Assembly: GCA_017608625.1 (NCBI GenBank)
Contig: JAFCFN010000006.1
Span: 295 to 64,294, forward strand
Source: Candidatus Woesearchaeota archaeon
Lineage (GTDB): Archaea > Nanobdellota > Nanobdellia > Woesearchaeales > JAFCFN01
Reading direction: 5' to 3'
DNA length: 64,000 bases
A program made the position numbers and the translations under genes. This document shows positions 2,683 through 58,769 of this stretch, piece after piece. Position 1 is the first letter of the stretch; each line of letters begins with the position of its first letter. Under the pieces are notes generated by a model. That model saw nothing but the letters and a program-made list of their open reading frames with translations. It did no database searches and was not told where the DNA came from.

Positions 2683-3468
2683 TTAACCAATATAGTTTGT
2701 TTCTTTTCTTTTGCTTAATTTTTTGAAAGCAAGCTGTTTTGATACAGTTGAAATATCTCTTGTTCTTCTTATTAGTTCTGATTCTATCTCTTTTATTTCT
2801 TTGTCTAATTTAGTAAGATTCAGTTTTAGATTTAATTTTTTATTTAAGATTTTCAGCTCTTCTCTTGCTCCTTTGATACCCAAATAAAGGGGATGACCAA
2901 GTGTTTCTGCTAGTAATGCAATTGCTTTTATTTTTCTTTTCTCTGCTAATCCTAGCAATAGACCAGTTACACCAATTATCGGTCCTACAACTCCATAAAT
3001 TTTATCATTAAGCTCTGTGTCTTTTTTATATTTGTTAATAATTTCCTTGTTGTTTGCTGTGCAAAATACTCTTGGTTTTTTTGGCATCTCTGCCAAGCCA
3101 ATTCCCCCAAGGGTTATTATTTCTTTTCCTTTGTAACTTTGGAAAATATCTAGAATTTTCTCACAAAATTCATAAGAACTAACCTCATCAACAGGTTGGA
3201 TATCTCCTGCTAAAAGCAATAGATCGTTTTTTGGCATTTTTTTGTAATAGAGCTCTATTTTTGGTAGATCTACTAAATTATTCTCATTAACAAAAACAGA
3301 ATGAGGAAAAGTATATGAGAAGATGTTGTATATTTTTTTAGCTTTTAACTCAGATATCAAAAAATCAACAGCTATTTTTCCAACATTTCCTATACCAGGT
3401 AAACCCTCTATTAAAATAGGGCTCTTGGGTTTGACTTTCATTAATTTGGTTATCTTCCACATACTCAT
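2683..3468 (-). CDS. PAC2-family (proteasome assembly chaperone-like) protein
   Basis: 'ILIEGLPGIGNVGKIAVDFL' N-terminal motif typical of archaeal PAC2/COG1938 proteins. Confidence 0.5.
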   Translation of the reverse strand: MSMWKITKLMKVKPKSPILIEGLPGIGNVGKIAVDFLISELKAKKIYNIFSYTFPHSVFVNENNLVDLPKIELYYKKMPKNDLLLLAGDIQPVDEVSSYEFCEKILDIFQSYKGKEIITLGGIGLAEMPKKPRVFCTANNKEIINKYKKDTELNDKIYGVVGPIIGVTGLLLGLAEKRKIKAIALLAETLGHPLYLGIKGAREELKILNKKLNLKLNLTKLDKEIKEIESELIRRTRDISTVSKQLAFKKLSKRKETNYIG

Positions 3469-6594: not shown

Positions 6595-7043
6595 AAATGC
6601 CAAGACCATTTGTTTGCAGAAGAGTTTGGTTTAGACCAGGAATAACCTATTTTAAACCAGCAGGAGCCAGATTGACCGGTTTGGTTGAGGTGGTATTGAC
6701 TGTGGATGAGTTTGAGGCAGTGAGATTAAAAGATTTTTTAGGTATTGGACAGGAAGAAGCAGCAAAAAAGATGAATGTTTCTCAGCCAACATTCTCAAGA
6801 ATCTTAGAGTCAGCAAGAAAAAAGATTGCAGATGCATTGGTTAATGGCAAAGCAATTAGAATAGAAGGAGGTACATATAAAATGGCTGGTCCAATTGTAA
6901 GAGGAAGAGGCAGAGGTTTTGGAGGTCCTGCTATGATCTGCATGTGCCCTAGCTGTGGTCATCAAGAAGCAAAACAAAGAGGAGTTCCATGCTCTACTTT
7001 AAGATGCCCTAAATGTGGAGCACCTATGGTAAGAGGACAATAG
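6591..7043 (+). CDS. DUF134/UPF0251 putative DNA-binding protein with C-terminal Cys cluster
   Basis: '[29 protein letters not shown]' DUF134 core; C-terminal CPSCG...CPKCG. Confidence 0.55.
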
Positions 7044-7094
7044 ACTGTATTAAGGGTTGCATTTTTATAAATTCAAAGAGGGGTGGTAAACAAA

Positions 7095-7259
7095 ATGGTA
7101 AAAATAAACAAAAATAAATGCATAGGGTGTGGCGCTTGTGCAGCTGCATGTCCAGAAGGCTTTATGGTTGTTGGAGGAAAAGCAATAATAAAAAATCCTA
7201 AAGCCGAATGTATCAAAGAAACAATCAGCATATGCCCGGTAGGTGCAATTGAAAAATAA
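7095..7259 (+). CDS. small 4Fe-4S ferredoxin (54 aa, not in ORF track)
   Basis: 'CIGCGACAAACP' and 'CPVGAI' cluster motifs; lies inside antisense ORF 7065..7316. Confidence 0.6.
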   Translation: MVKINKNKCIGCGACAAACPEGFMVVGGKAIIKNPKAECIKETISICPVGAIEK

Positions 7260-7272
7260 AAAAGGAGGTAAA

Positions 7273-7653
7273 ATGAAAATAGCTATAAGTTCAACTGGAA
7301 AAAGAATAGAAGACAATGTAGACGTAAGGTTTGGAAGATGTCCTTATTTTTTAATTGTAGAAATTGAAGATAAAAAAATAAAAAACATAAAAGCAGTAGA
7401 AAATACAGCAGCAATGCAAGCAGGTGGAGCTGGAATCACAGCAGCACAGATTGTTGCAAATGAAAGAGTAGAAGCAGTTATTACAGTAAATACGGGACCG
7501 AGAGCCTTTGATGTTTTCGCTCAATTAGGAATTAAAGTCTATCAAGGGCAAGGAAAAATAAAAGATGTTGTTCAGCAGTTTGTTGACGGAAAACTAACAG
7601 AAATAACAACACCAACAGGACCAATGCATATGAGTATGGGAAAGAGATTTTAG
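7273..7653 (+). CDS. NifX/NafY-like FeMo-cofactor-binding domain protein (paralog)
   Basis: 'MKIAISSTG...GRCPYFLIVE...QAGGAG'; strong SD aaggaggt before Met at 7273. Confidence 0.6.
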   Translation: MKIAISSTGKRIEDNVDVRFGRCPYFLIVEIEDKKIKNIKAVENTAAMQAGGAGITAAQIVANERVEAVITVNTGPRAFDVFAQLGIKVYQGQGKIKDVVQQFVDGKLTEITTPTGPMHMSMGKRF

Positions 7654-7668
7654 TAAATATAAATAAAG

Positions 7669-8010
7669 ATGAGATGGTATCTTAGAAGCAAAATTCACAA
7701 TGCAACTGTTACAGAAGCAAAAGTAGATTATATGGGAAGCATAACAATAGATAGGGAATTAATTGATAAAGCAGGATTTGATAAAGGAGAAAAAGTATCT
7801 GTCTGGGATATTACAAATGGTGAAAGACTTGAAACTTACATTATTCCAGGAGAAAGAAATTCAGGAATAATCTGCATAAATGGAGCAGCAGCAAAGAGGA
7901 TTAAAAAAAGAGATATCATAATTATAGCTGGATTTGAGCTTTCAGACAAGCCAATAAAACCAAAAATTATCTTAGTTGACGAAAAAAATAAATTTGTTAG
8001 ATATTTGTAG
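7669..8010 (+). CDS. panD: aspartate 1-decarboxylase (pyruvoyl-dependent, bacterial type)
   Basis: 'SKIHNATVTEAKVDYMGSITID' PanD signature including Gly-Ser self-cleavage site. Confidence 0.8.
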   Translation: MRWYLRSKIHNATVTEAKVDYMGSITIDRELIDKAGFDKGEKVSVWDITNGERLETYIIPGERNSGIICINGAAAKRIKKRDIIIIAGFELSDKPIKPKIILVDEKNKFVRYL

Positions 8011-8800
8011 AATAGCTTTTATTTTTATTTTTTTATTGACTGGCTGTAAGTTAGAAGAACAAATAATTGAAAAAGAGGTGTCTATTATGGAAGAGAACAT
8101 AACATTATCCGACATAACAATCATAAACATTTATGATAATGTTGAATTTGATTCTAAATTTAAAACAGGTTTTGGGTTTGGATGCCTTGTAAAACTAAAA
8201 AATAAAACAATTCTCTTTGATACAGGGGGAGATTCTCCTACCTTATTAACAAACCTAGAAACAGCAGGAGTCAAACCAGAGGAGATTGATATTATTGTTT
8301 TATCCCATGTCCATGGAGATCATGTTGGAGGTTTGCTAGGTTTTTTAGAAGAAAATCCTAATGTTAAGGTTTATATTCCAAGCTCTTTTCCTTCTTCATT
8401 TAAAAATGATATAACTTCGACAGGAGCAGAGATAATAGAAATAAGTAACTCAGCTAAAATAGCTAATGGAGTTTATTCAACAGGAGAACTTGGAACATGG
8501 ATCAAAGAACAATCATTGGTAATTAATTCAAATAAAGGCTTGATTGTGATAACAGGTTGTGCGCATCCTGGAATTGTTAATATAATTAAAAAAGCAAAGG
8601 AATTATTTGATAAAAATATTTATCTTGTTATGGGCGGGTTTCATCATCCTCCACTATCTATAGTAAAAGAATTTAAAGAACTTGGTGTAGAAAAGGTTGC
8701 ACCCGGTCATTGTACAGGCGATCCAGTAATAGAAGCATTTGTAGAAAAATATGGGGATGATTTTATAGAAAGCGGAGTCGGAAAGGTTACCAAGGTGTAG
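7976..8800 (+). CDS. MBL-fold metallo-hydrolase, probable lipoprotein
   Basis: 'LSHVHGDHVGG' HxHxDH motif; N-terminal 'FLLTGC' lipobox-like. Confidence 0.6.
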   Translation: MTKKINLLDICRIAFIFIFLLTGCKLEEQIIEKEVSIMEENITLSDITIINIYDNVEFDSKFKTGFGFGCLVKLKNKTILFDTGGDSPTLLTNLETAGVKPEEIDIIVLSHVHGDHVGGLLGFLEENPNVKVYIPSSFPSSFKNDITSTGAEIIEISNSAKIANGVYSTGELGTWIKEQSLVINSNKGLIVITGCAHPGIVNIIKKAKELFDKNIYLVMGGFHHPPLSIVKEFKELGVEKVAPGHCTGDPVIEAFVEKYGDDFIESGVGKVTKV

Positions 8801-8805
8801 GGGAT

Positions 8806-9393
8806 ATGGAGAAATCTAAAAAAAGATTGATGCAAGGATTAAGTGTTGAAATAAATAACTGCAAAAAATGCGAGTTATGGAAAACAAGAACAAATCCTGT
8901 TATTGGGGAAGGGTCAGTTGATGCAAGAATAATGTTTATCGGAGAAGCTCCAGGTTATAATGAGGATAAAACAGGACATCCTTTTTGTGGAGCAGCTGGA
9001 AAAATTTTGGATAAAATTTTAGTGTCTATTGGATTTAAAAGAGAAGAGATTTATATCACAAATATTTTAAAATGCAGGCCTCCAGGAAATAGAAATCCTA
9101 CGAAAGAAGAGATAGATGCCTGCAGCTCTTACCTTGATATGCAAATTGAGATTATTAAGCCTAAGATAATCTGTTCTTTAGGCAATTTTGCAACTGCCTA
9201 TGTAATGGAAAAATTCGGTTTAAAAGAGAAAGTACAAGGAATAAGCAGGATTCATGGAAAGGTTTTTTTACATAACACCCTTTTTGGCCCTATAAAAATT
9301 ATTCCTTTCTATCATCCTGCTGTTGCTGTTTATAATATGAATATGTTAGATGTGCTTAAAAAGGATTTTGCTGTTTTAAAACAAGTAAGATGA
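8806..9393 (+). CDS. udg: uracil-DNA glycosylase family 4
   Basis: 'GEGSVDARIMFIGEAPG' and 'HPFCGAAG' family-4 UDG motifs. Confidence 0.8.
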   Translation: MEKSKKRLMQGLSVEINNCKKCELWKTRTNPVIGEGSVDARIMFIGEAPGYNEDKTGHPFCGAAGKILDKILVSIGFKREEIYITNILKCRPPGNRNPTKEEIDACSSYLDMQIEIIKPKIICSLGNFATAYVMEKFGLKEKVQGISRIHGKVFLHNTLFGPIKIIPFYHPAVAVYNMNMLDVLKKDFAVLKQVR

Positions 9394-9508
9394 GAATAGC
9401 TGTAACAGGCGGGAAAAAAATAAAAATTCAAAACTTTGTTTTGAATTTTATCCTCCCCACTAGTACACAACTGGGTGAGTGTCCCGCCCCGACACAAGAT
9501 GTTTTAAG

Positions 9509-10339
9509 ATGAAGATCGCTATAACGGGTGGGAAAGGAGGAACAGGCAAAAGTACAGTAGCAACAGCACTGGCGGTTGAGCTAGCGAAATCTAAAAAAGT
9601 TCTTCTAATGGATGCAGATACAGACTGCCCAAATGATCACTTAATTCTTTCAATAAAAAGAAAAAAGGAAAATGATATTTTTCAATTAATGCCAAAATGG
9701 GATTTCAGAAAATGCGTCAAATGTGGCAAATGTGCCCAAGTATGTAAAGAAAATGCCATTCTATTTGTAAAAGGAAAATATCCTATATTTGTTCCGGATT
9801 TATGCACTGGCTGTGGAGCTTGTATTTTGGCTTGTCCAACAAAAGCAATAAGCAAAGATAAACAAATAATAGGAACAATCTATTCTGGAACTGGTTATGG
9901 AGTTGATTTATTGACAGCAGAAATGAGAATTGGTTATGAGGAAGCCTCTCCAATTGTGAATGCCTTGAAGAAATTTTCTTCAAAAAAAGAAAAGAAATAT
10001 GATTATATCATTGTTGATACAGCAGCTGGAACTCACTGCAATGTGATCTCTGCTTTATTAGGATGTAATCTAGCAATAGTTGTTACAGAACCAACACCCT
10101 TAGCAGCAGCTGATTTGAATTTAATACTTCAGTTATGCAAAGTATTGAAAGTTCCCACTACTGTTGTTCTAAACAGATCAAATATTGGCAATAAACAACT
10201 CATTGAAAAGATAATTAGAAAATACAAAACAAAAATAATAGCAGAAATTCCATATAAAAAAGAAATCTTAGAAGCGTACTCAAGAGGGAAACCAATTAAA
10301 GATAAATCAATAACTCAAATTATAGAATCAATAAAATGA
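9509..10339 (+). CDS. MinD/ParA-superfamily P-loop ATPase with 4Fe-4S ferredoxin insert
   Basis: 'KIAITGGKGGTGKST' deviant Walker A; CxxCxxCxxxC clusters; ATG at 9509 preferred over track GTG 9479. Confidence 0.7.
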   Translation: MKIAITGGKGGTGKSTVATALAVELAKSKKVLLMDADTDCPNDHLILSIKRKKENDIFQLMPKWDFRKCVKCGKCAQVCKENAILFVKGKYPIFVPDLCTGCGACILACPTKAISKDKQIIGTIYSGTGYGVDLLTAEMRIGYEEASPIVNALKKFSSKKEKKYDYIIVDTAAGTHCNVISALLGCNLAIVVTEPTPLAAADLNLILQLCKVLKVPTTVVLNRSNIGNKQLIEKIIRKYKTKIIAEIPYKKEILEAYSRGKPIKDKSITQIIESIK

Positions 10340-10927: not shown

Positions 10928-11803
10928 ATGAAAACAATCACAATACTTTCAGGAAAAGGAGGAGTTGGTAAAAGCAGTTTAACAGCTTCGCTAGCTGTGC
11001 TGCTAGCTAAAAAAAAGAAAATCATTACTGTTGACTGTGATGTTGATGCTCCTAATTTAGCTTTGGTTTTAGGAGTTAAGAAATTCAAAACAAAAGAAAA
11101 AATACAAACAAGTGAAAAAGCAAGGGTGATTACAAAAACATGCCCTGAATGTAAAAAAAATATTGATGTTTGTATTTTTGGAGCAATAGATTGGGATCAA
11201 AGAAATAGAAGGCCAATCATTAATAAATTTCTTTGTGAAGGTTGTGGAGCTTGTGAATTAGTATTTCCAAAAGGTACTGTAAAACTAGAAAAGGTGCAGA
11301 ATGCAACTATCAACACAGCAAAAACAAGCTATGGATTTCCAATTGTATCTGGCCAATTAAAAATGGGAGAATCAGGGAGTGGAAAAGTGGTTACTGCTGT
11401 AAAACAGAAGGCAGAAAAAATAGCAAAAAAAGAAAAAGCAGAGATAATGCTTGTTGATTCCTCCCCAGGAATAGGCTGTCCAGTGATTGCTTCTATTCAA
11501 GGTTCTGATTATGTTATTGCAATAACAGAACCAACACCAGCTGCATTAAATGATCTTCAAAGAGTACTCCAGGTTGTAGAGCATTTTAATATTCCTTATG
11601 GACTCGTTATTAATAAATGGGATGTTAATAAGGCATTTACAAAAAAGATAGAAAGGTTTGCTAAGGAATGCAAAATCCCGATACTTGGAAAATTACCTTA
11701 TGACAAAGCATTTGTTAATGCTTTGGTTAATTTGAAACCTGTTGTTGTTTATGATAAAAAATATCAGGATATCTTTTGTGAGATTTTTAAAAAATTAATT
11801 TAG
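10928..11803 (+). CDS. MinD/ParA-superfamily ATPase with 4Fe-4S ferredoxin insert (paralog)
   Basis: 'ILSGKGGVGKSS' Walker A; Cys clusters CPECKK...C, CEGCGAC. Confidence 0.7.
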   Translation: MKTITILSGKGGVGKSSLTASLAVLLAKKKKIITVDCDVDAPNLALVLGVKKFKTKEKIQTSEKARVITKTCPECKKNIDVCIFGAIDWDQRNRRPIINKFLCEGCGACELVFPKGTVKLEKVQNATINTAKTSYGFPIVSGQLKMGESGSGKVVTAVKQKAEKIAKKEKAEIMLVDSSPGIGCPVIASIQGSDYVIAITEPTPAALNDLQRVLQVVEHFNIPYGLVINKWDVNKAFTKKIERFAKECKIPILGKLPYDKAFVNALVNLKPVVVYDKKYQDIFCEIFKKLI

Positions 11804-11862
11804 AAGATAAATTTATAAACAACATAAAACGGATATAAATAAAAGATATCCAAAAAAAGAGA

Positions 11863-12687
11863 ATGATTCAAAAAGTAGTTATTGAGACAATCAGAATAAT
11901 CCTTATAGTTACTATTTTGATGACTCTTGTTGAGTGGCTTCAGATAAAATTCAAAGACAAGATAGAAAAGAATATTACTAGAAATAAAAAAAATCAAATA
12001 ATTGGTGCAAGCTTGCTGGGAGCTATTCCTGGATGTCTTGATGCCTTTTTCATAGTCAATTTATATTCTCATGGAGTGGTTGGTTTTGGCGCTTTAGTGG
12101 CTGTTATGCTTTCAACAGCAGGAGATGAAGCCTTTGTTATGTTAGCAATGATTCCAAAAAGCGCTTTTCTAATTTTTGCTGTATGCGCTGTTCTGGGAAT
12201 TGGGGGAGGGTTTCTTGCTGATATGATAGCCAAAAAAATTAAATTAAAAAGAGCAAAACCCTGTACTGTTATAATTCATAAAAAAGAAAAAACCAAACAC
12301 TTTTTGAAAGAACACGTATTAAATCATATACTCAAAAAACATATACCCAATCTTTTTCTGTGGGTGTTCTTTACTTTATTGATTGTTGAGATTGCAATGC
12401 AGCATTTTGATCTAACTGCAATCCTGCCTCAAAATAAACTGCTGTTGATTATGCTAGCTGCTTTGATTGGAATTATCCCAGAATCAGGCCCTCACTTGAT
12501 CTTCCTCACTCTATTTGCTCAAGGCTTAATTCCCTTTTCGGTTTTGCTGGTTTCCTCTCTTAGCCAGGATGGTCACGGCTTATTGCCCCTACTTTCGTAT
12601 TCTGTTAAAGATACCCTTAATGTTCAAATCTTTACAACTCTGTTTGCCTTAGTAATAGGGGGAATATTGTTTTTTATAGGATTATAA
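11863..12687 (+). CDS. polytopic membrane protein (possible metal/ion transporter)
   Basis: 8+ hydrophobic helices, no recognisable signature. Confidence 0.35.
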   Translation: MIQKVVIETIRIILIVTILMTLVEWLQIKFKDKIEKNITRNKKNQIIGASLLGAIPGCLDAFFIVNLYSHGVVGFGALVAVMLSTAGDEAFVMLAMIPKSAFLIFAVCAVLGIGGGFLADMIAKKIKLKRAKPCTVIIHKKEKTKHFLKEHVLNHILKKHIPNLFLWVFFTLLIVEIAMQHFDLTAILPQNKLLLIMLAALIGIIPESGPHLIFLTLFAQGLIPFSVLLVSSLSQDGHGLLPLLSYSVKDTLNVQIFTTLFALVIGGILFFIGL

Positions 12688-12703
12688 AAAAGGAGGTTAA
12701 AAA

Positions 12704-12988
12704 ATGTTGTCTCAAATACCAATTGATCTGAAGAAATTAGATAAAAAGAATATTGATAGAGAGATTTTGAGAGTAGGAATGATAGCAGAGTTGGATGCAG
12801 TAAATCTTTATGAACAGCTAGCAGCAATGACTCAGGATAAAAAAATAAAAGCAATTCTTTTAGATATTGCAAAAGAAGAGAAAACACATGTAGGAGAGTT
12901 TCAGGCATTATTATTAAAGAGAGATAAGGAACAAATCAAGGAATTAGAAGCTGGTAAAAAGGAAGTCGAAGATAAAGTTAAAGAGTAA
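12704..12988 (+). CDS. ferritin-like/rubrerythrin-like small protein
   Basis: 'ELDAVNLYEQLA' and 'EEKTHVGEF' diiron-type ExxH-like motifs. Confidence 0.45.
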   Translation: MLSQIPIDLKKLDKKNIDREILRVGMIAELDAVNLYEQLAAMTQDKKIKAILLDIAKEEKTHVGEFQALLLKRDKEQIKELEAGKKEVEDKVKE

Positions 12989-13024
12989 TCACAACTTTTA
13001 AATATTTTTGTTAATTTCCAAGGA

Positions 13025-14140
13025 ATGATGAAAAAGCAGTTAATCTTTGGATTATTGCTTCTATTTTTAATTAGTTTAATCCCTGTTACAGCTCAAGAAA
13101 CAAACGAGACAGACAAAATATGTATTTATTTTTTCTATGGGATTGGATGTCCTCACTGCGCTAGAGTTGAACCCTACATTGATGAATTAGAGAAAAATAC
13201 TAATGTTCATATACATAGATATGAAATCTATCAAAATAGATCGAATCTTTTACTTTTATTGCAATATTTTGAAAACTATAATGTTCCTGAAAATCAGAGA
13301 GGAGTGCCTGCTGTTTTTGTGGGAGACACATATTATGTTGGGGATAAGCCAATATTAGATAATTTACCAGCCAAGATCAAGGAGTTGGAAGAGGTATTAT
13401 GTGTTGCTGGAAAAATAAATGCAACAGGTGTCAGTGGAAATACAGCTCCTTTAGGCACACTAGCAACAATTCCTCTGTTAACTGTTATAGGTGCTGCTTT
13501 GGTTGATTCAATAAATCCATGTGCAATTGCAGTTTTATTAATACTATTAGCTGGTCTGATGGCAATAGGAAGCAAGAAAAAAGCAATAAAAGCAGGGTTG
13601 GCGTTCACTTTATCCATTTATATTGTTTATTTTTTATTTGGTTTAGGATTGTTTTCTGCTTTGCAGATAACTGGAATTGCTTATTATTTTTACAAGGTAA
13701 TTGGATTCTTGGCTATTTTCATTGGTTTAGCAAACATCAAAGATTACTTCTGGTATGGAAAAGGATTTTTGATGGAAATTCCAAGAACATGGAGGCCAAC
13801 ATTAAAGAAATTATTGAAATCAGTAACATCTGTATGGGGAGCGTTCTTAATTGGTTTTGTGGTTTGTTTGTTTGAACTTCCTTGTACAGGAGGCCCTTAT
13901 CTGTTTGTTCTTGGCTTGTTAGCTCAAAAAACAACTCAGCTACAAGCAATTCCAATATTGTTGTTGTATAATGTGTTCTTTATCCTTCCTTTGATTATAA
14001 TTAATCTTAGTGTTTACTATGGTTTGACATCAATAGAGAAAACAGAAGAATGGAAGGAAAAGAATATTAAAAAACTGCATTTATTTGCTGGAATTGTTAT
14101 GTTGACTTTAGGAGTTCTTGTGTTTAGTGGTTTGGTTTAA
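13025..14140 (+). CDS. thioredoxin-fold domain fused to CcdA/DsbD-type disulfide-transfer membrane domain
   Basis: signal peptide, 'GCPHC' thioredoxin motif, 'INPCAIAVLL' CcdA motif, 6 TM. Confidence 0.6.
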   Translation: MMKKQLIFGLLLLFLISLIPVTAQETNETDKICIYFFYGIGCPHCARVEPYIDELEKNTNVHIHRYEIYQNRSNLLLLLQYFENYNVPENQRGVPAVFVGDTYYVGDKPILDNLPAKIKELEEVLCVAGKINATGVSGNTAPLGTLATIPLLTVIGAALVDSINPCAIAVLLILLAGLMAIGSKKKAIKAGLAFTLSIYIVYFLFGLGLFSALQITGIAYYFYKVIGFLAIFIGLANIKDYFWYGKGFLMEIPRTWRPTLKKLLKSVTSVWGAFLIGFVVCLFELPCTGGPYLFVLGLLAQKTTQLQAIPILLLYNVFFILPLIIINLSVYYGLTSIEKTEEWKEKNIKKLHLFAGIVMLTLGVLVFSGLV

Positions 14141-17993: not shown

Positions 17994-18078
17994 AGCCTCA
18001 GGAGGGATTTGAACCCTCGACCTGCTGATTTCTAGCAGAGCTACAAGTCAGCTGCTCTGGCCACTGAGCTACTGAGGC
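17994..18078 (-). tRNA. tRNA-Thr(UGU) with ~12-nt anticodon-loop intron
   Basis: rc gives GCCTCAG-TA-GCTCAGTGGCCAGAGC-A-GCTGA-CTTGTA[GCTCTGCTAGAA]A-TCAGC-AGGTC-GAGGGTTCAAATCCCTC-CTGAGGC-T. Confidence 0.75.
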
Positions 18079-21558: not shown

Positions 21559-21936
21559 CTACTTCTTCTTCATAGCATCAAAAGTAGCTGGCAAATCAAT
21601 TATATATTTGCCATCAGCTAGCTTGAAAACCAAAGGTTCTTTTTTGAATAAATGAACTAAATCCAGTTCATACTTTCCTGGTTTAAGGACTCTTATACTC
21701 TCAAAGTCGAGAACAACTGGCTTTTCTTCATGCTCTTCCTTTCCTATTAGATCAAGAACATCCTTCTCTAGTTCTTGTTTTTGCTTTTCTGTTAGATTAA
21801 TAGTTATTTCTTTGGCTTGCTCTAGTTTTTCTTTTTTAATAAAAAAGAAGAGTCTTGATCCGCAAGAACAGCCTTTGAGAATTTCATTAGCTGTATCATC
21901 ATACAACTTTCCGCATCTTACACACTGGTGTGGCAT
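21559..21936 (-). CDS. Zn-ribbon protein (DUF2072-like)
   Basis: N-terminal 'CVRCG...CSCGS' C4 ribbon, 125 aa. Confidence 0.5.
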   Translation of the reverse strand: MPHQCVRCGKLYDDTANEILKGCSCGSRLFFFIKKEKLEQAKEITINLTEKQKQELEKDVLDLIGKEEHEEKPVVLDFESIRVLKPGKYELDLVHLFKKEPLVFKLADGKYIIDLPATFDAMKKK

Positions 21937-22066
21937 AACCGTAGCCGGTTAACGTCTAGGCGATATTCGATTGCTTCGCAATCGAAATCCCCTGGCCTCG
22001 CTTTGACTTGTCTGCGAGCAAGCGAGCAGACTCGCTTGCAAGTCAGCTCGGCTGTTAACCTCCTCC
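21937..22066 (-). ncRNA. GC-rich structured element between GGAGG and ATG (copy 1, ~130 nt)
   Basis: ~60% GC in 30% GC genome; nested hairpins (GACTTG/CAAGTC, CAAGCGAG/CTCGCTTG, TTCGATTGC/GCAATCGAA); flanking GTTAAC palindromes; 3' 27-mer shared with copy at 43643. Confidence 0.5.
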
Positions 22067-22067
22067 A

Positions 22068-22472
22068 TTATTTCCTCTTTTTCTTAATTTTTCTTCTCTT
22101 TTTTACTTCTTTTGTTAGTAACTCTATTTTCTTTGGATCTTTTTTAATTGATTTGACAACATTTGCAGGTCCAATAATAGTCAACCCTGTTCTATCTCCT
22201 AGTAATGAATTAATTAAACCTTCCTTAAATCTGCTGAACCAAGGAGTATCTTTACTAATGTTAGGATAGATGACACTTAGTTCAATTCCTTTAAATTCTT
22301 TATTTATTTCTTCCATTGTTGCTTTTATTAATTCTGCTTCTTCCTCTTTTTTTAGCCTTCCTTGTAACAACACTATTTTGTTCTCTTTTGCTATATTAAG
22401 CAATTTTCTTATTCTCCCTACAGATGTCAAATCTGCAATTTCATTATAAGGCACAACTTGTAGAGTTACCAT
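22068..22472 (-). CDS. conserved archaeal protein (DUF2073-like), Lys-rich tail
   Basis: 134 aa; sits between small GTPase and Zn-ribbon gene, as in the conserved archaeal triplet. Confidence 0.4.
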   Translation of the reverse strand: MVTLQVVPYNEIADLTSVGRIRKLLNIAKENKIVLLQGRLKKEEEAELIKATMEEINKEFKGIELSVIYPNISKDTPWFSRFKEGLINSLLGDRTGLTIIGPANVVKSIKKDPKKIELLTKEVKKRRKIKKKRK

Positions 22473-22473
22473 G

Positions 22474-23109
22474 TTATTTCACCAATTTGAATAGTTCATC
22501 GTATAATTCTTCAATATTGTTGCCATATTTGGCAGAGATCCCAATAACATTATATTGAGGGAATGCTGATTTTATTTTTCTTATGTTGGCTCTTTTTAGA
22601 TCAATCTTGTTACCAGCAATCAAAACAGGAATTTTCCTTGCTGCTAGATTACCAATTGTTGTGATGTTAACTTGTGAATAAGGATCCTTTGTTGCATCTA
22701 AAACAACAATGACTGCTTCCATTTCATCAAGCCATTTTATAGCTTCAATAACACCTTTTGTTGCTTCTTTTGCTCTTCTTTTGGCTACTGATTTACTTAG
22801 ACCAGCTTTAAGAAAATCTTCATAGTCAATCTTTGTGGCTATTCCAGGTGTGTCAACAACATTAAAGCTCAGCTCTCTGCCATCAGAATTCTTTATAACA
22901 ACATTTTCTTTTATTTTTATCTCTCTTGTCTCATGAGCAATTTTACTGACTTTGCTTAGCTCTTCTCCTAGCCAGTCTTTACAGATTCTATTGGCTAGAG
23001 TTGATTTTCCTCCATTAGGAGGACCATATAATCCTAGTTTAATAGCTCCTCTTCTTTTGAACAGCTTTGCTACAAATTTCTTAAAAAAGTTCTTTAAAAA
23101 AGCAACCAC
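22474..23109 (-). CDS. small P-loop GTPase
   Basis: 'GLYGPPNGGKSTLANRI' Walker A, 'VVDTPG' G3, 'GNKID' G4. Confidence 0.6.
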   Translation of the reverse strand: MVAFLKNFFKKFVAKLFKRRGAIKLGLYGPPNGGKSTLANRICKDWLGEELSKVSKIAHETREIKIKENVVIKNSDGRELSFNVVDTPGIATKIDYEDFLKAGLSKSVAKRRAKEATKGVIEAIKWLDEMEAVIVVLDATKDPYSQVNITTIGNLAARKIPVLIAGNKIDLKRANIRKIKSAFPQYNVIGISAKYGNNIEELYDELFKLVK

Positions 23110-23144
23110 TTTACACCCTTATTCCTGAATATTTTAATTATTGT

Positions 23145-23858
23145 TTATATAATTTTCTCTATTTGTTCAGCCTCTTTATATTTGGTTAAAAACAAGTCCT
23201 TCATTAGTTTAATAAAAGACTTGTCTTTAATTAATAAAGTGGTATTTGATTTTATTAGGGCCAACATCATCACACTATCATCAATTATACTCATTGCAAT
23301 TCCCTCATTTTCTATTTTTTTAATGTTTTTATGAATCTCTAACCATTTTTTGATATTGTTCTCTGTTTCTCTGTCAAATCTAACCAATTCTTTTATTATA
23401 ACTCCTTTTTTCAAACTCTCTCTTTTTTCTCTTACCCAAACTGGCTGATACTCTGCAGTGTATTTAATGTTATACTCTGATTTTTTCGGTTTTGGCAGCT
23501 CTCTTTCTATTTTATAAAATGCTTTTTTTCCTCTCGTAATTATAACTGGCTCTTCTTCTTTGCTTGCATAAAGTTTTTCCAGTTTTTTGATATCCTCTTT
23601 TATTTTATCTAACTCTGCTTTTTTGGCTTCAACTAGCTTCATTAAATTTTCAGGATCAGAAGCAATGAATTTTTTTGTTTTTTCTGGAATTATTTTGACC
23701 AAGCCCTTTCTTTCTAAAGAAGTCAATACTTCGTAGATTCTCCCATAAGAAACATCAGCTTCTGCTGCTATCTGGGATGCTGTTGCTTTGACTAGTTTGA
23801 TTAATGCTTCATATGCTTTTGCTTCATATTCTGTTAAACCCAATTCTCTTAAATTCAT
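23145..23858 (-). CDS. TrmB-family transcriptional regulator
   Basis: N-terminal wHTH 'LTEYEAKAYEALIKL...SYGRIYEVLTSLERKGLV'. Confidence 0.7.
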   Translation of the reverse strand: MNLRELGLTEYEAKAYEALIKLVKATASQIAAEADVSYGRIYEVLTSLERKGLVKIIPEKTKKFIASDPENLMKLVEAKKAELDKIKEDIKKLEKLYASKEEEPVIITRGKKAFYKIERELPKPKKSEYNIKYTAEYQPVWVREKRESLKKGVIIKELVRFDRETENNIKKWLEIHKNIKKIENEGIAMSIIDDSVMMLALIKSNTTLLIKDKSFIKLMKDLFLTKYKEAEQIEKII

Positions 23859-23933
23859 ACAGATTATAAATTGCTTTTGCTATATAAATCTTTCTATTTA
23901 CAACACCTTGAGGTGGGGCAAATAAGAAATCGA

Positions 23934-25097
23934 TTAAACACTCCTCTTCACAATCAAACTAGTTTTAATGATCTCTTTAGCTTTCTCCAAATCTTTTTTC
24001 TCAACTTTGTTTCTTAACTCTAATCTTGCAGCTGCTTTTGCCAATCTAATTAAACCAATAATCATTCTAGGAGAAACCTCAACTAAGAAATTATTCTCCT
24101 TTTCTTTAAGTTCTTTGCTAAATTCTACAACATCTTTTTGAAAATCTCTTGGAAACTCTACTTTTATTTGTTGAGCATGATCAATATATTCTTTTATGAA
24201 ATTTAAGTCCATCTTATTTACTTTTTTTCTGTCTTGTTCAACAATCTTTTTTGCTATTTCTGAGAATTGAGTTACACCAGGTGTTTTGATTAAGAACACT
24301 AAATGAAACCTTGTTAACAAGGCAGGGTCAAAAGGTATCTGTTTTTTTAGATCCTCAATTCTTACTCCAATGAACTTATCTTTTTTTGGATTAGCAGAAG
24401 CAAGAACATTTACTTTTGCTTCAAATGTATAGTGCTTTCCTCCTTTATTATATGATATAAAACCTTTTTCCATTGCGTTATACAAACTTGCTCTGTCTTC
24501 TTGCTTCATCAGATTTAACTCATCTATTACAGCAATTCCATTATTTGCCATCGGTAATAAACCAGGGATTACATCATTCCCTTTTACTGTAACAGCTAAG
24601 CCTGCTGAGGATGTTCCTGAGCCTAGACCAAATGAAGAGATAGGAGCTAGATCTGTTACTGATTTTATTATATCTGATTTGCCAATCCCTGGATCTCCTA
24701 ATAGTAAGATATGTAGCTGTTCTGCAAATAACTGCAATAACACTGCTTCTTTTACTGTATCTAAACCAGTTATATTTGGTGCAATTAAGTTTAAAATAGT
24801 TGATCTTGCTTTTTTGCTGAAATCCTCAAAAGCCTTTCTTTTATAATGATAATCTATTGTTTTGTTCATTAAATCAACAAAATCAGCAACTCTTTTGTCC
24901 ATAACAGATAACTCAAGAATAGGAAATATCTCATCATAAACAAGGGTTGTGCCTAATCTTGATTGAGAAAAAGATATACTGCCTTCTTTTAGCAGTTTTT
25001 TAACTTTTTTTGCATCTTCTTTATCTAAGATTTCTTTTATTATTTTGAAATTTGCTCTTTTTGTGCCTAACAAAGGCAATAGTTGTTTCCACCCCAT
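23934..25097 (-). CDS. MCM-family AAA+ ATPase lacking canonical N-terminal domain (mini-MCM)
   Basis: Walker A 'LLLGDPGIGKS', Walker B 'IAVIDELNLM', MCM-specific 'YNAMEKGFISYNKGG...VLASANP', Arg finger 'LLTRF'; only 387 aa. Confidence 0.65.
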   Translation of the reverse strand: MGWKQLLPLLGTKRANFKIIKEILDKEDAKKVKKLLKEGSISFSQSRLGTTLVYDEIFPILELSVMDKRVADFVDLMNKTIDYHYKRKAFEDFSKKARSTILNLIAPNITGLDTVKEAVLLQLFAEQLHILLLGDPGIGKSDIIKSVTDLAPISSFGLGSGTSSAGLAVTVKGNDVIPGLLPMANNGIAVIDELNLMKQEDRASLYNAMEKGFISYNKGGKHYTFEAKVNVLASANPKKDKFIGVRIEDLKKQIPFDPALLTRFHLVFLIKTPGVTQFSEIAKKIVEQDRKKVNKMDLNFIKEYIDHAQQIKVEFPRDFQKDVVEFSKELKEKENNFLVEVSPRMIIGLIRLAKAAARLELRNKVEKKDLEKAKEIIKTSLIVKRSV

Positions 25098-29791: not shown

Positions 29792-31082
29792 ATGTTGTTT
29801 GCACATCTAGCAGATTGTCATATAGGATCTTGGAGAGATGAAAAACTAAAGCATTTGAATACAGAGGCGTTTCTTAAAGCAACTCAAATGTGCATGGATA
29901 AAAAGGTTGATTTTATTCTTATATCAGGAGACTTGTTTAATACTTCTCTGCCTTCTGTTGATAATCTAAAAACAATTGTTGGAAGATTAAAGGAATTAAA
30001 AGACAATAATATTCCAGTTTATATTATTGCTGGCTCTCATGATTTTTCTCCATCAGGCAAAACAATTCTAGATGTTCTGGAAAAAGCTGATTTAGTAAGG
30101 AATGTATTTCAAGGAGAAGTTGAGGAAGGTAAACTAAAGCTAAAATTCACAATTGATGAAAAAACAGGAGCAAAAATAACAGGAATAATAGGCAAGAAAG
30201 GAATGTTGGACAGAACATATTATGAACAATTAGATAAAACCGATCTAGAAAAAGAAGATGGCTACAAGATTTTTATGTTTCATACTGCTTTGAGTGAATT
30301 CAAACCAAAAAATCTTGAACAAATGGAGTCTGCTCCACTATCATTTTTACCAAAAAACTTTAATTATTATGCAGGAACCAAAAAATCTTGAACAAATGGA
30401 GTCTGCTCCACTATCATTTTTACCAAAAAACTTTAATTATTATGCAGGGGGGCATGTTCATTATATTTTTAATAAAAAAGAACCTAATTATGGTATGATA
30501 GCTTATCCAGGTTCTTTAAGTCCAACTAATTTTAAGGAGCTAGAAGAAGGTACTCATGGTTTTTATTTTGTTGATAATGACAAAATAGAGTTTGAGAACA
30601 TACAAGTTTATAATGTTTTTTCTATAAATATTGATTGTGAGAACAAAACTCCTCAAGAGGTTGAGGAGGAAATCAAAAAGGAAATAGAAGATAAAGAGTT
30701 CATAAATACAATAGTAACCATAAGGTTACAAGGTTGTCTAAAACAAGGAAAGCCTTCTGACATTAACTTTAAAGAAATATTTTCTATGCTTTATGATAAA
30801 TCAGCTTATTTTGTTATGAGAAACACATCTGCTTTAACATCAAAAGAATTTCAGGAAGTTGAGATTAATGTAGAGCCAAGTGAAAATATGGAAGAGGATT
30901 TAATCAAAGAGCATGTTGGACAGGTGCCTCTATTTGGATTAGATAAAGAAAAAGAGACAGAGTTAACAAAAAGATTAATGAGGATACTTCAGCAGGAAAA
31001 ACAAGAAGGAGAAACAAGAGCTGTTTTTGAAGAAAGAATCAAAAAAGATTTAAATATAATATTAAAACAACTAGGGATCTGA
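29792..31082 (+). pseudogene. mre11: Mre11-like DNA repair nuclease, reading frame broken by 73-bp tandem duplication
   Basis: phosphoesterase motifs 'HLADCHIG', 'GDLFN', 'AGSHD', 'GGHVH'; ORFs 29792..30391 and 30294..31082 join if one repeat copy removed. Confidence 0.65.
30303..30448. repeat. perfect 73-bp tandem duplication (2 copies) inside mre11
   Basis: aaccaaaaaatcttgaacaaatggagtctgctccactatcatttttaccaaaaaactttaattattatgcagg x2. Confidence 0.9.
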
Positions 31083-31083
31083 A

Positions 31084-31476
31084 ATGATTGACCTATCAAA
31101 ACTAGAGCAAATATTGAAAGATTCTTGGAGTAAAGAAACTAGCTCTGACCCAGATAATTGGTCACCAGAAAATCCTGCTTGGGGACAATGCGCAGTTACA
31201 TCATTAATTGTTAATGATTGTTTAGGAGGAGAAATTGTTTGGGCTCCAGCCATTCTTCCTAATGGAAAGGAGATATCACACTATTTTAATAAAATAAATG
31301 GAAAAGAAATTGATCTAACAAGGGAACAATTCCCATCTGGAACAAAGATTCCTCTAGGCATTCCGAAATCAAAACAATTTTCAACAACAAGGGAGTATAT
31401 TCTTTCTTATCCTGAAACTCAAAGAAGATATGAAATATTAAAACAAAAGGTCCAAAAGGCTTTAGAACTCACTTAA
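31084..31476 (+). CDS. hypothetical protein
   Basis: 130 aa; not Rad50. Confidence 0.3.
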   Translation: MIDLSKLEQILKDSWSKETSSDPDNWSPENPAWGQCAVTSLIVNDCLGGEIVWAPAILPNGKEISHYFNKINGKEIDLTREQFPSGTKIPLGIPKSKQFSTTREYILSYPETQRRYEILKQKVQKALELT

Positions 31477-32532
31477 TGTCTTAACCTTACTATATCTTAC
31501 AATTGTTGTAGTACCTTCTTTACCACCTGTTATTTTTTCTAAAGAAACAAATCTTCCTTTTTCTAGTTTATCTATCTTTCTCTGGAATGTTTTGTAGCTG
31601 CTTTTGCCACCTTGTTTTTGGTATATTGTAAATAACTCTCCAATTTTTAATCCACTATTTACTTTTATTAAATCAAGCAGTGCATGTAATTCATCATCCA
31701 AATCAGTACTTTTTTTGATTGAGAAATCATCTAATTTTTTGATAGCATTCTGAACATGTTTTATTGTTATCTTTTTGCTGCTTTCATCTTCTGCTAAATT
31801 TCCTGCTTCTCTCATTAAATATAAACCAGACCTTATGTCTTCTAATTCTGCTGTTTTTTTAACAACAAGCTCAAATGCATCATCTTGCCATACACCAGGA
31901 ACAAATGCATACTGCATTCTCTGCTTTAGTATGTCTCTTGTTTCAGCCTCAGAATATGGTCTAAAATGCAGGGTTTCTGCAATTAATCTTGATTTTAATC
32001 TTGAATCTAAGTTAAAAATCCAGTCTTTGTGATTTGTTATCATAAGAATTGTTTTTCTGTAGATTTCTTCCAAGATAGAATAAAGAAAATCTAAGTCCTC
32101 TGCTTTGTCTATTTCATCAAAACAGAAAACAACTGATTTCTTGTTTAATTGCTCTTTTATTACCTTAAAAAGCTCGTTTGATTTTTTGTTTTGGGTAAAT
32201 CTATACTCAAGCTGATCGCATAACTCAAGCATTATTTTATATGTAGTATTTTTTTGCCAACAATTGACATAAATTGGAATTACTGAATCTGTTTTTTCTT
32301 CTAATTCCTGAAAAATATGTTTGCATGCAACTGTTTTTCCAACTCCTGATGAGCCATAAATCAATAAATTTTTGCCATTTCTTTTTGAGAACAAAGGTTT
32401 TATACAGCTGGCAATATAATGCTGTTCATTTTCTCTATGAGGAATTAATTTAGGGATATAATCATAATCTAGTGCAACAGTGTCTCTAAAAAGACTTTCC
32501 TCAGAACCTAGCATGTTGTCAAATATTCCCAT
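31462..32532 (-). CDS. cdc6: Orc1/Cdc6 replication initiator
   Basis: 'LLIYGSSGVGKT' Walker A, 'VFCFDEID' Walker B, C-terminal winged helix. Confidence 0.85.
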   Translation of the reverse strand: MGIFDNMLGSEESLFRDTVALDYDYIPKLIPHRENEQHYIASCIKPLFSKRNGKNLLIYGSSGVGKTVACKHIFQELEEKTDSVIPIYVNCWQKNTTYKIMLELCDQLEYRFTQNKKSNELFKVIKEQLNKKSVVFCFDEIDKAEDLDFLYSILEEIYRKTILMITNHKDWIFNLDSRLKSRLIAETLHFRPYSEAETRDILKQRMQYAFVPGVWQDDAFELVVKKTAELEDIRSGLYLMREAGNLAEDESSKKITIKHVQNAIKKLDDFSIKKSTDLDDELHALLDLIKVNSGLKIGELFTIYQKQGGKSSYKTFQRKIDKLEKGRFVSLEKITGGKEGTTTIVRYSKVKTLSEF

Positions 32533-51418: not shown

Positions 51419-51730
51419 AATAACTAAAAAAAATTAGTGATATTTATTTGTTTTGGTTAGGAGCTCTTAGATTCTTATATTAGAATAAAGAGAATCCTCT
51501 CTCCACCTCTTAAGCTTTTGGAGTATTGGCTCTATTTCTTTTAAGACATTATCAAAAGATTTTCTCATTTCTTCCTGTTGCTTTTTTGACAGATAAATTT
51601 CTTTTATTTTTGATTTATGTATTTCCATGAAAATGTTTTAATCATTTTAATATATAAATCTTTCTATTTTTACCACCTAATAGTAATCATAACCGAAAGA
51701 TTTATAAATAATTAACCACTACTAAGTAGT

Positions 51731-57089: not shown

Positions 57090-57232
57090 CTCTTTTTATT
57101 GTTTATGAATATAATATAGGTTTAAAATAGTAATGCTATTTATAAATGTTTTGGTTAATATAAAGATAAAATCAGTTCTGCAAGAGTGATAAAATATCAG
57201 AAAGCTTTATAAAAATAAAAAGTGTAAAATTA

Positions 57233-57288
57233 TACAGGAGGGGGCTGTGAGCAAACAATATACAGGAGGGGGCTGTGAGCAAACAATA
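57233..57288. repeat. perfect 28-bp tandem duplication (tacaggagggggctgtgagcaaacaata x2)
   Basis: seen in sequence; overlaps predicted start of downstream ORF. Confidence 0.9.
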
Positions 57289-58032
57289 GATGTTCTAGTT
57301 GAGTTTATAAAATCAAATGCATTAGAAAATAACAATGGAAGTCAAAATGAAAATGCATCTGAAAGCATCAATATAACTGATATTTCACATCCAGATCAAA
57401 ACCTAACAATTAATGAAGGAGAAGATTTAGTAATAATTGTGAACTTTTCTAGAGTAACTGATTATAGCTGGATTATTAATAATCAAACAGTTGTATCTGG
57501 AACAGGAGATTCAGCAAGCTATAATTTTAGTGCAGATTTTAGTTCATCTGGCAATTACACTTTAAGATTAATAGCTGGAAATTTAACAAGAGAGTGGAAC
57601 ATTACAGTCAAAGAAGCAGGTGATCTAGTATTTGAGTTTAGAACAGCTGTTCTTGATTATAATACAGAGGCGTATATACCTAATAATACAGTGACAATCA
57701 ACGGAGTAACAAAACAAAACCCTAATCGTTCTTCTCATTACAAAACAATATTCAATGTCAGCTCTGATACTTTAACTGAAACTTGTTATTCAGCTGACAA
57801 TTATTTGCCAGATTGTGATGATGTTTATTTTGATATGAGACTAACAACTTGTACAGCAGGAAGTGATTGTAATTTAGGAACTAATAAAGGGGGCTACACA
57901 ACTAATTGTGTATGGAACAGTGATTGGGGTGATTTTACATGCACAGTTACAAAAGCAGATTACAAATCTGTTTTTATCTATAATCCTAATCAAAATGCTG
58001 TAAAAAGGGTTAATTACTTGGAGAAGAAATAA
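57247..58032 (+). CDS. Asn/Thr-rich putative surface glycoprotein (many NxS/T sequons), start uncertain
   Basis: >15 N-x-S/T sequons, Cys-rich C-terminus; no signal peptide at predicted start. Confidence 0.35.
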   Translation: MSKQYTGGGCEQTIDVLVEFIKSNALENNNGSQNENASESINITDISHPDQNLTINEGEDLVIIVNFSRVTDYSWIINNQTVVSGTGDSASYNFSADFSSSGNYTLRLIAGNLTREWNITVKEAGDLVFEFRTAVLDYNTEAYIPNNTVTINGVTKQNPNRSSHYKTIFNVSSDTLTETCYSADNYLPDCDDVYFDMRLTTCTAGSDCNLGTNKGGYTTNCVWNSDWGDFTCTVTKADYKSVFIYNPNQNAVKRVNYLEKK

Positions 58033-58722: not shown

Positions 58723-58769
58723 TAACCTTTATAAATAAGTAGGTTCCCTTTTTCAAACATTATAGAAGA

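Follow-up and report, generated by a model that had tools for sequence, protein, structure and literature searches.

In the archaeal contig analyzed here, a conserved mre11 gene is interrupted by a perfect 73-bp tandem duplication, and we put the probability that this duplication is a private assembly or library artefact, and not a property of the organism's gene, at about 0.65. The gene is intact in four sibling assemblies, which makes an assembly error or a one-off mutation the most likely cause of the break. Behind the duplication, the real gene is predicted from its sequence to encode, without interruption, a 405-aa nuclease of the Mre11 family that is strongly conserved; its host is a Woesearchaeota (DPANN) archaeon. 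Throughout, "the window" denotes the whole 64-kb stretch of DNA that was analyzed, and L numbers denote the loci with which it was compared.

The duplication and the gene it interrupts

Tandem Repeats Finder reported 30303–30448 as a repeat of period 73 with 2.0 copies, 100% matches and a score of 292. Direct string comparison and a repeat search showed that the two 73-mers are identical and directly adjacent (spacing 73), exactly as originally predicted, and found no further occurrence of the unit within the 64-kb window. The chance of a perfect adjacent 73-mer is ~4^-73. Where the copies meet, the sequence reads GCAGG followed by AACC; in a longer form it reads TTATTATGCAGG followed by AACCAAAAAATCTTG, also given as CTTTAATTATTATGCAGG followed by AACCAAAAAATCTTGAACAA. 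The single-copy allele in its context is GAATTCA, one unit, GGGGCATG. The window contains no Ns, and the contig passes unbroken through the duplication.

The repeat cannot be extended by even one base on either side, and there is therefore no flanking microhomology. Because microhomology at the boundaries is 0 bp, the proposal that the unit arose as a microhomology duplication was not supported. No hairpin or other structure able to promote slippage was detected at the duplication either (DNA fold −7.2 kcal/mol, z = 0.06). tRNA and Rfam scans in or near the mre11 locus returned nothing, and exact 27-mer scans for the 73-bp unit gave no match in metagenome and genome contig collections that do not hold this population.

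Since 73 = 3 × 24 + 1, the second copy shifts the reading frame. The ORF list contains the predicted products of this shift: a 199-aa ORF, which stops four codons into copy 2, and a 262-aa ORF, which runs mechanically from a GTG at 30294 to 31082 and shortens to 237 aa from the ATG at 30369. Deletion of one copy gives an ORF of 1,218 nt encoding 405 aa, so the prediction that removing a copy restores a continuous protein was correct. The coordinates of these and the other features are collected in Table 1.

Table 1 Features of the window and of the loci compared with it. Positions are those of the window unless stated otherwise.
Feature	Sequence	Position	Strand	Remarks
Mre11-family nuclease gene, interrupted	window	29792..31082	+	405 aa with one 73-bp copy less; Pfam Metallophos; restored ORF identical to gene in L001–L003
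5' fragment ORF, 199 aa	window	29792..30391	+	native residues 1–195 (motifs I–IV), then TKKS and stop; cluster P0005
3' fragment ORF, 237 aa from ATG	window	30369..31082	+	MQE and native residues 172–405, motifs V–VI and C-terminal domains; cluster P0002
Duplication copy 1	window	30303..30375	+	from base 2 of codon 171 through base 2 of codon 195; lies after motif IV (H164) and before motif V (G196-H197-x-H199)
Duplication copy 2	window	30376..30448	+	100% identical to copy 1; missing in 4 of 4 sibling assemblies
YunG-family gene, 130 aa	window	31084..31476	+	PF24585, E 8e-35; starts 1 nt past mre11 stop
Cdc6/Orc1 gene	window	31462..32532	-	convergent with mre11-yunG; in conserved MCM/Oap/Cdc6 neighbourhood
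Second perfect tandem duplication, 28 bp × 2.1	window	57231..57288	+	private to window assembly; Tandem Repeats Finder and sibling comparison
3-bp indel, in frame	L001	33559		inside seryl-tRNA synthetase gene
45-bp indel	L001	33972		intergenic
25-bp indel	L003	26092
Blunt 22-bp deletion	L004	33423–33444		inside seryl-tRNA synthetase gene (L004 12699–14105)
Blunt 46-bp deletion	L004	33727–33772		inside seryl-tRNA synthetase gene (L004 12699–14105)
Perfect 37-bp tandem duplication	L009 (Ga0366835_1038756)	~51427–51463		reverse complement 3125–3198; upstream of MscS gene; window single-copy
20-bp deletion	L011			splits large surface-protein gene
Sibling assembly	L001			JGI sample 3300033141, scaffold Ga0366833_1000595
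Sibling assembly	L002			JGI sample 3300033148, scaffold Ga0366832_1005251
Sibling assembly	L003			JGI sample 3300033150, scaffold Ga0366835_1021408
Sibling assembly	L004			JGI sample 3300033149, scaffold Ga0366834_1001948

The original assignment of the gene to the Mre11 family held in Pfam, in NCBIfam and against solved Mre11 structures compared by sequence. The restored protein matched PF00149 (calcineurin-like metallophosphoesterase) over residues 1–199 with 50 bits (cut-off 21.5), and its best NCBIfam matches were archaeal Mre11 models (E 3.5e-33 and 5e-24). The equivalog score was not reached: Mre11_Pyroc gave 115 bits (cut-off 600) and Mre11_Sulfo 85 bits (cut-off 500). Because these scores lie well below the equivalog cut-offs, the protein is a divergent member of the family. 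P. furiosus Mre11 (1ii7/4hd0) matched at E ~1e-24 (best 2.5e-24, residues 1–228), M. jannaschii Mre11 (3av0) at E 8e-17 (residues 1–349), and 4tug over residues 1–345; in the last two, the similarity to solved Mre11 structures runs past the phosphoesterase core into the capping domain. A database search returned 3,454 homologues at E<=1e-5. The best 120 of them are mostly 400–415 aa long and ~60–65% identical, and the named ones listed among those 120 are from Woesearchaeota or Nanoarchaeota.

In an alignment of 15 sequences, residues D8, H10, D47, G81-S82-H83-D84, H164 and G196-H197-x-H199 are invariant and align to the motifs of P. furiosus Mre11. The claim that all phosphoesterase motifs are present therefore stands as to their presence, but motif III is not the canonical GNHD. 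At residues 81–84 (window 30032–30043) it reads GSHD in 15 of 15 aligned members, Ser replacing the metal-ligand Asn of the P. furiosus motif. The alignment of the restored protein has no gap across residues 171–195, the duplicated stretch, which lies between motifs IV and V. The frameshift divides the motifs, leaving I–IV on the 199-aa fragment and V onward on the 237-aa fragment; judging from known Mre11 structures, neither fragment alone could form the active site.

Could the two fragments nevertheless be functional, either because both ORFs are made and the products reassemble or because the ribosome shifts frame? The last 23 nt of the first ORF (30369–30391) are shared with the ORF that begins at the ATG at 30369, so translational coupling is conceivable. 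Yet the insert exactly repeats the coding sequence next to it, and read-through would double ~24 residues between motifs IV and V. Moreover, the second ORF has no Shine-Dalgarno-like sequence upstream that could serve as a ribosome-binding site, no slippery or structured element was found, and the gene is plain and single-copy in the siblings and in all homologues listed. A split gene or a programmed frameshift is thus effectively excluded. Together with an archaeal intron, these candidates were rejected on two grounds: the insert exactly copies adjacent coding sequence, and it is missing in the siblings.

Sibling assemblies and private indels

Exact look-up of the YunG-family protein encoded downstream of mre11 returned five contigs, four of which (L001–L004) were compared with the window. 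They come from independent JGI metagenome assemblies, and we found no literature on their sample and scaffold identifiers. On either side of the repeat, the four contigs show 100% identity to the window (12–21 kb compared); in each of them the unit is single-copy and the 405-aa ORF is intact. The mre11 gene of L001–L003 has exactly the restored nucleotide sequence, and that of L004 is two SNPs off. In L002, the 73 bp are the sole difference from the window over 14.3 kb. A cluster look-up found the split products (199 aa and 237 aa) on a single contig of 75,291 bp, presumably the one from which the window derives, and intact Mre11 on three contigs with a one-residue variant on one more. Since L001–L004 are single-copy and the split products occur on one contig, the duplication is private to one of five assemblies.

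We then compared the window with eight sibling loci over ~111 kb of pairwise alignment. The siblings and the window together show ~14 indel events versus 3 SNPs, which is the reverse of the natural mutation spectrum, and each event is private to one assembly. Microhomology at all indels, the 73-bp duplication included, is 0–2 bp. The events include two blunt deletions in the seryl-tRNA synthetase gene of L004, where the protein is called as 261 aa versus 427–428 aa; it is implausible that an allele of this type is both real and dominant. L009 also has 1-bp indels besides its tandem duplication, and L010 is identical to the window over 336–20725. At the 5' end of the uL16/L10e gene (window 58759–58769; L011 3570–3610), three assemblies present three alleles: the N-terminus is complete in L011 (MARLRKGKSYRRMEPRAYTR), 25 bp are deleted in the window, whose ORF begins at Met13, and 36 bp are deleted in frame in L012.

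The 28-bp duplication of the window lies at the exact junction where the window lacks ~5.5 kb that are contiguous in L009, L011 and L012 and that include the gene for a 919-aa surface protein. The junction has the structure A-[X16 M12][X16 M12]-B, in which M (TGAGCAAACAAT) is a 12-bp microhomology common to both sites. This duplication spans a ribosome-binding site, a GTG start and 4 codons, and a 261-aa ORF (57247–58032) is in frame with that start codon only given the duplication.

What dominates these differences is mid-sized blunt indels and perfect duplications with almost no SNPs, all of them assembly-private and several in presumably indispensable genes. Evolving populations do not show such a pattern, and from it we infer a technical origin. 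Three observations argue for such an origin of the 73-bp duplication as well: private indels also fall in genes that should be indispensable (seryl-tRNA synthetase and uL16), there are further private perfect tandem duplications (28 bp in the window, 37 bp in L009), and the mre11 gene is strongly conserved among its homologues. Two overlapping sequence pieces may have been joined without removal of a 73-bp overlap; alternatively, a chimeric library molecule may have been carried into the consensus. By the first route, an unremoved overlap would yield a perfect duplication and a false overlap a blunt deletion. Against an artefact stands the continuity of the contig through the duplication, with neither a break nor Ns. 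A k-mer-graph assembler with k>73 cannot create the junction without reads that contain it, and no single assembler k (or k-1) explains 73, 28 and 37. Some of the private indels may also be real, because about half of them lie in intergenic DNA or at the 5' ends of genes, a share that exceeds the expectation for random errors in a gene-dense genome.

The main competitor, which we consider possible but doubtful, is a real and very recent tandem duplication in the sampled sub-population. The +1 frameshift would inactivate mre11, and the allele would be neutral or deleterious, revertible by losing one copy, and not yet purged. Such an unselected null allele keeps its place because graph assemblers with k>73 need junction reads, no k is shared among the duplications, the contig is unbroken, and the call of an artefact itself rests on assembled sequence. 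Perfect identity of the copies would mean that the event is recent, and the lack of all metal-binding motifs together in either fragment that the allele would be null. The in-frame 3-bp indel in seryl-tRNA synthetase and the 3 SNPs look real, which indicates some heterogeneity in the population. If the junction is supported by reads, the duplicated allele dominated that sample. On the other side, the duplication is missing in four of five assemblies of a 100%-identical population. Natural frameshifting tandem duplications in prokaryotes usually have microhomology at their boundaries, and here there is none, nor a slippage hairpin. The gene is strongly conserved in thousands of relatives, and the equally real-looking private indels in seryl-tRNA synthetase and uL16 could hardly be dominant alleles.

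A more elaborate version of a real event has very little probability in our view. Here the duplication would have knocked out mre11 in one sub-lineage, and the window's two other private rearrangements, the 5.5-kb deletion (with a templated 16-bp insertion beside the 12-bp microhomology) and the 25-bp deletion at the start of uL16, would stem from the resulting defect in double-strand-break repair; this would amount to a "mutator by mre11 loss" lineage, or to a reversible duplication switch.

Marginally less probable still is a phase-variable (contingency) switch, in which the 73-bp unit would alternate between one copy and two, switching Mre11 on and off in a fraction of the population. Since 73 is not divisible by three, a change between one and two copies does switch the frame, and both states occur among the sibling assemblies (one copy four times, two copies once). 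Short perfect tandem duplications are, besides, inherently reversible. The recurrent copy-number variation expected of a contingency locus was nevertheless not seen, either in the five assemblies or in 29 further loci with an mre11 orthologue (41–82% identity). There are two states only, the two-copy state was sighted once, none of the 29 orthologous loci has a repeat or split at the site, and the family alignment there is gap-free. Known contingency loci use tracts of short repeat units, as opposed to a 73-bp unit without microhomology, and the other private duplications and deletions lie at unrelated sites, intergenic DNA included.

The original prediction had left three explanations side by side: an inactivating duplication, a phase-variable switch and an assembly artefact. 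Given the single-copy siblings and the other private indels, they can now be ranked: an artefact is the most likely, next comes a private mutation not under selection, and a phase switch ranks last, unsupported. The feature is thus most likely not biological and, if it is, most likely an ordinary private frameshift allele.

Gene neighbourhood of mre11

Searches with Pfam, NCBIfam and phmmer found no Rad50 or HerA homologue within the 64-kb window, which agrees with the prediction that rad50, herA and nurA do not adjoin mre11. Two long ORFs were considered as Rad50 and rejected. The 1162-aa ORF is an SMC protein (TIGR02169, 836 bits, above the cut-off), and the 810-aa ORF has no family match. 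The latter (60420–62852, minus strand) is conserved in the siblings and, at E<0.01, matches nothing in Pfam or NCBIfam.

The 29 orthologous loci put this arrangement in context. Upstream of the orthologue and on the same strand, 16 of the 29 carry a HerA-like DUF87 ATPase of ~500 aa (L005, L008, L013, L014, L017, L020–L025, L030, L031 and L035–L037), an assignment based on Pfam PF01935, on phmmer and on best NCBIfam matches, which are HerA. In several of these 16 loci the HerA-like gene directly abuts mre11. A Rad50-like gene, in contrast, lies directly downstream of the orthologue only in L033 and L034 (Woesearchaeota) and in L035 and L036 (Asgard), all more distant, and 5.7 kb upstream of it in L027; the other Woesearchaeota loci have none within 10 kb. 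The Rad50-like gene encodes a Walker A motif, a CxxC hook and an LSGGE motif; in NCBIfam it matches Rad50 models best, with scores under the cut-offs. In the closest relatives, L005–L008, neither rad50 nor nurA adjoins mre11, and these loci have the MCM-OapABC-Cdc6 neighbourhood in common with the window. On this comparison of gene order, a neighbourhood without rad50 appears to be normal for the lineage and not peculiar to the window locus. The herA-mre11 pairing usually occurs without rad50 or nurA nearby, and the window lacks it.

The 130-aa ORF downstream of mre11 had been described as unrelated, and it is indeed a YunG-family gene, which is no known Mre11 partner and is missing at this position in the 71%-identical relative L006/L007. 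Further out, genes for OapC, OapB, a GTPase, a TrmB-like regulator and MCM (21559–25097) on one side and the Cdc6/Orc1 gene on the other flank mre11, an arrangement conserved in L005, L006 and L008. The mre11 region may be close to a replication origin.

Several other features were recorded in these loci. In L014, the HerA-like gene upstream of mre11 (6894–9992) encodes 1032 aa and appears to contain an intein-like insertion of ~520 aa immediately behind the Walker A motif (GTTGRGKS). In L035, a Hodarchaeota MAG, the Rad50-like gene downstream of mre11 (11284–13369) is split into two overlapping ORFs by an apparent frameshift. In the window, ARAGORN called a tRNA at 17994–18078 (minus strand) with a four-base anticodon (tgta) and no identity assigned (Rfam tRNA 64.5 bits); this tRNA may have an intron or an unusual anticodon loop.

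Implications and comparison with known systems

A DNA-repair nuclease gene that seems freshly inactivated in a public metagenome contig, yet is unbroken in four further assemblies of that organism, is a reason for caution. Because of those four intact copies, pseudogene calls, inferences of "gene loss" and claims of phase variation that are made from a single contig can be artefacts. If the duplication is real, it would be no more than a sporadic null allele of mre11, reversible and confined to one sample. The gene itself has modest biological interest: in Woesearchaeota, the Mre11 that is retained is conserved and has a GSHD motif, and its gene usually follows a herA-like gene and mostly lacks a rad50 neighbour.

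The restored protein resembles characterized archaeal Mre11 (P. furiosus, 1II7/4HD0; M. jannaschii, 3AV0) in its calcineurin-like phosphoesterase fold, matched by sequence, and in keeping the DxH, GD, H and GHxH motifs as well as P215-G216 (PGS in the restored protein). Among the orthologue loci, L033–L036 also show the Rad50-like gene downstream and the HerA-like gene upstream. It differs in having GSHD in place of GNHD across the 15 aligned family members, in scoring 115 bits where the NCBIfam equivalog cut-off is 600, and in the absence of an adjacent rad50 in the window and its closest relatives.

With pseudogenes made by frameshifting tandem duplications, the window shares a short direct duplication of a length not divisible by three, which truncates the frame; once one copy is lost, the frame is exactly restored. 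Unlike them, it has no microhomology, and the allele is present in one of five assemblies.

Local errors documented in metagenome assemblies include a duplicated overlap at joins, consensus without read support and a wrong number of repeats (Chen et al. 2020, Genome Res 30:315, PMC7111523). In the duplicated-overlap case of that study the copies are separated by Ns, whereas the window has none. In other respects the likeness is close: the two copies in the window are perfectly identical and lie in mid-contig, the duplication is missing from independent assemblies of the same population, and the same data set contains other private insertions and deletions and a mis-join.
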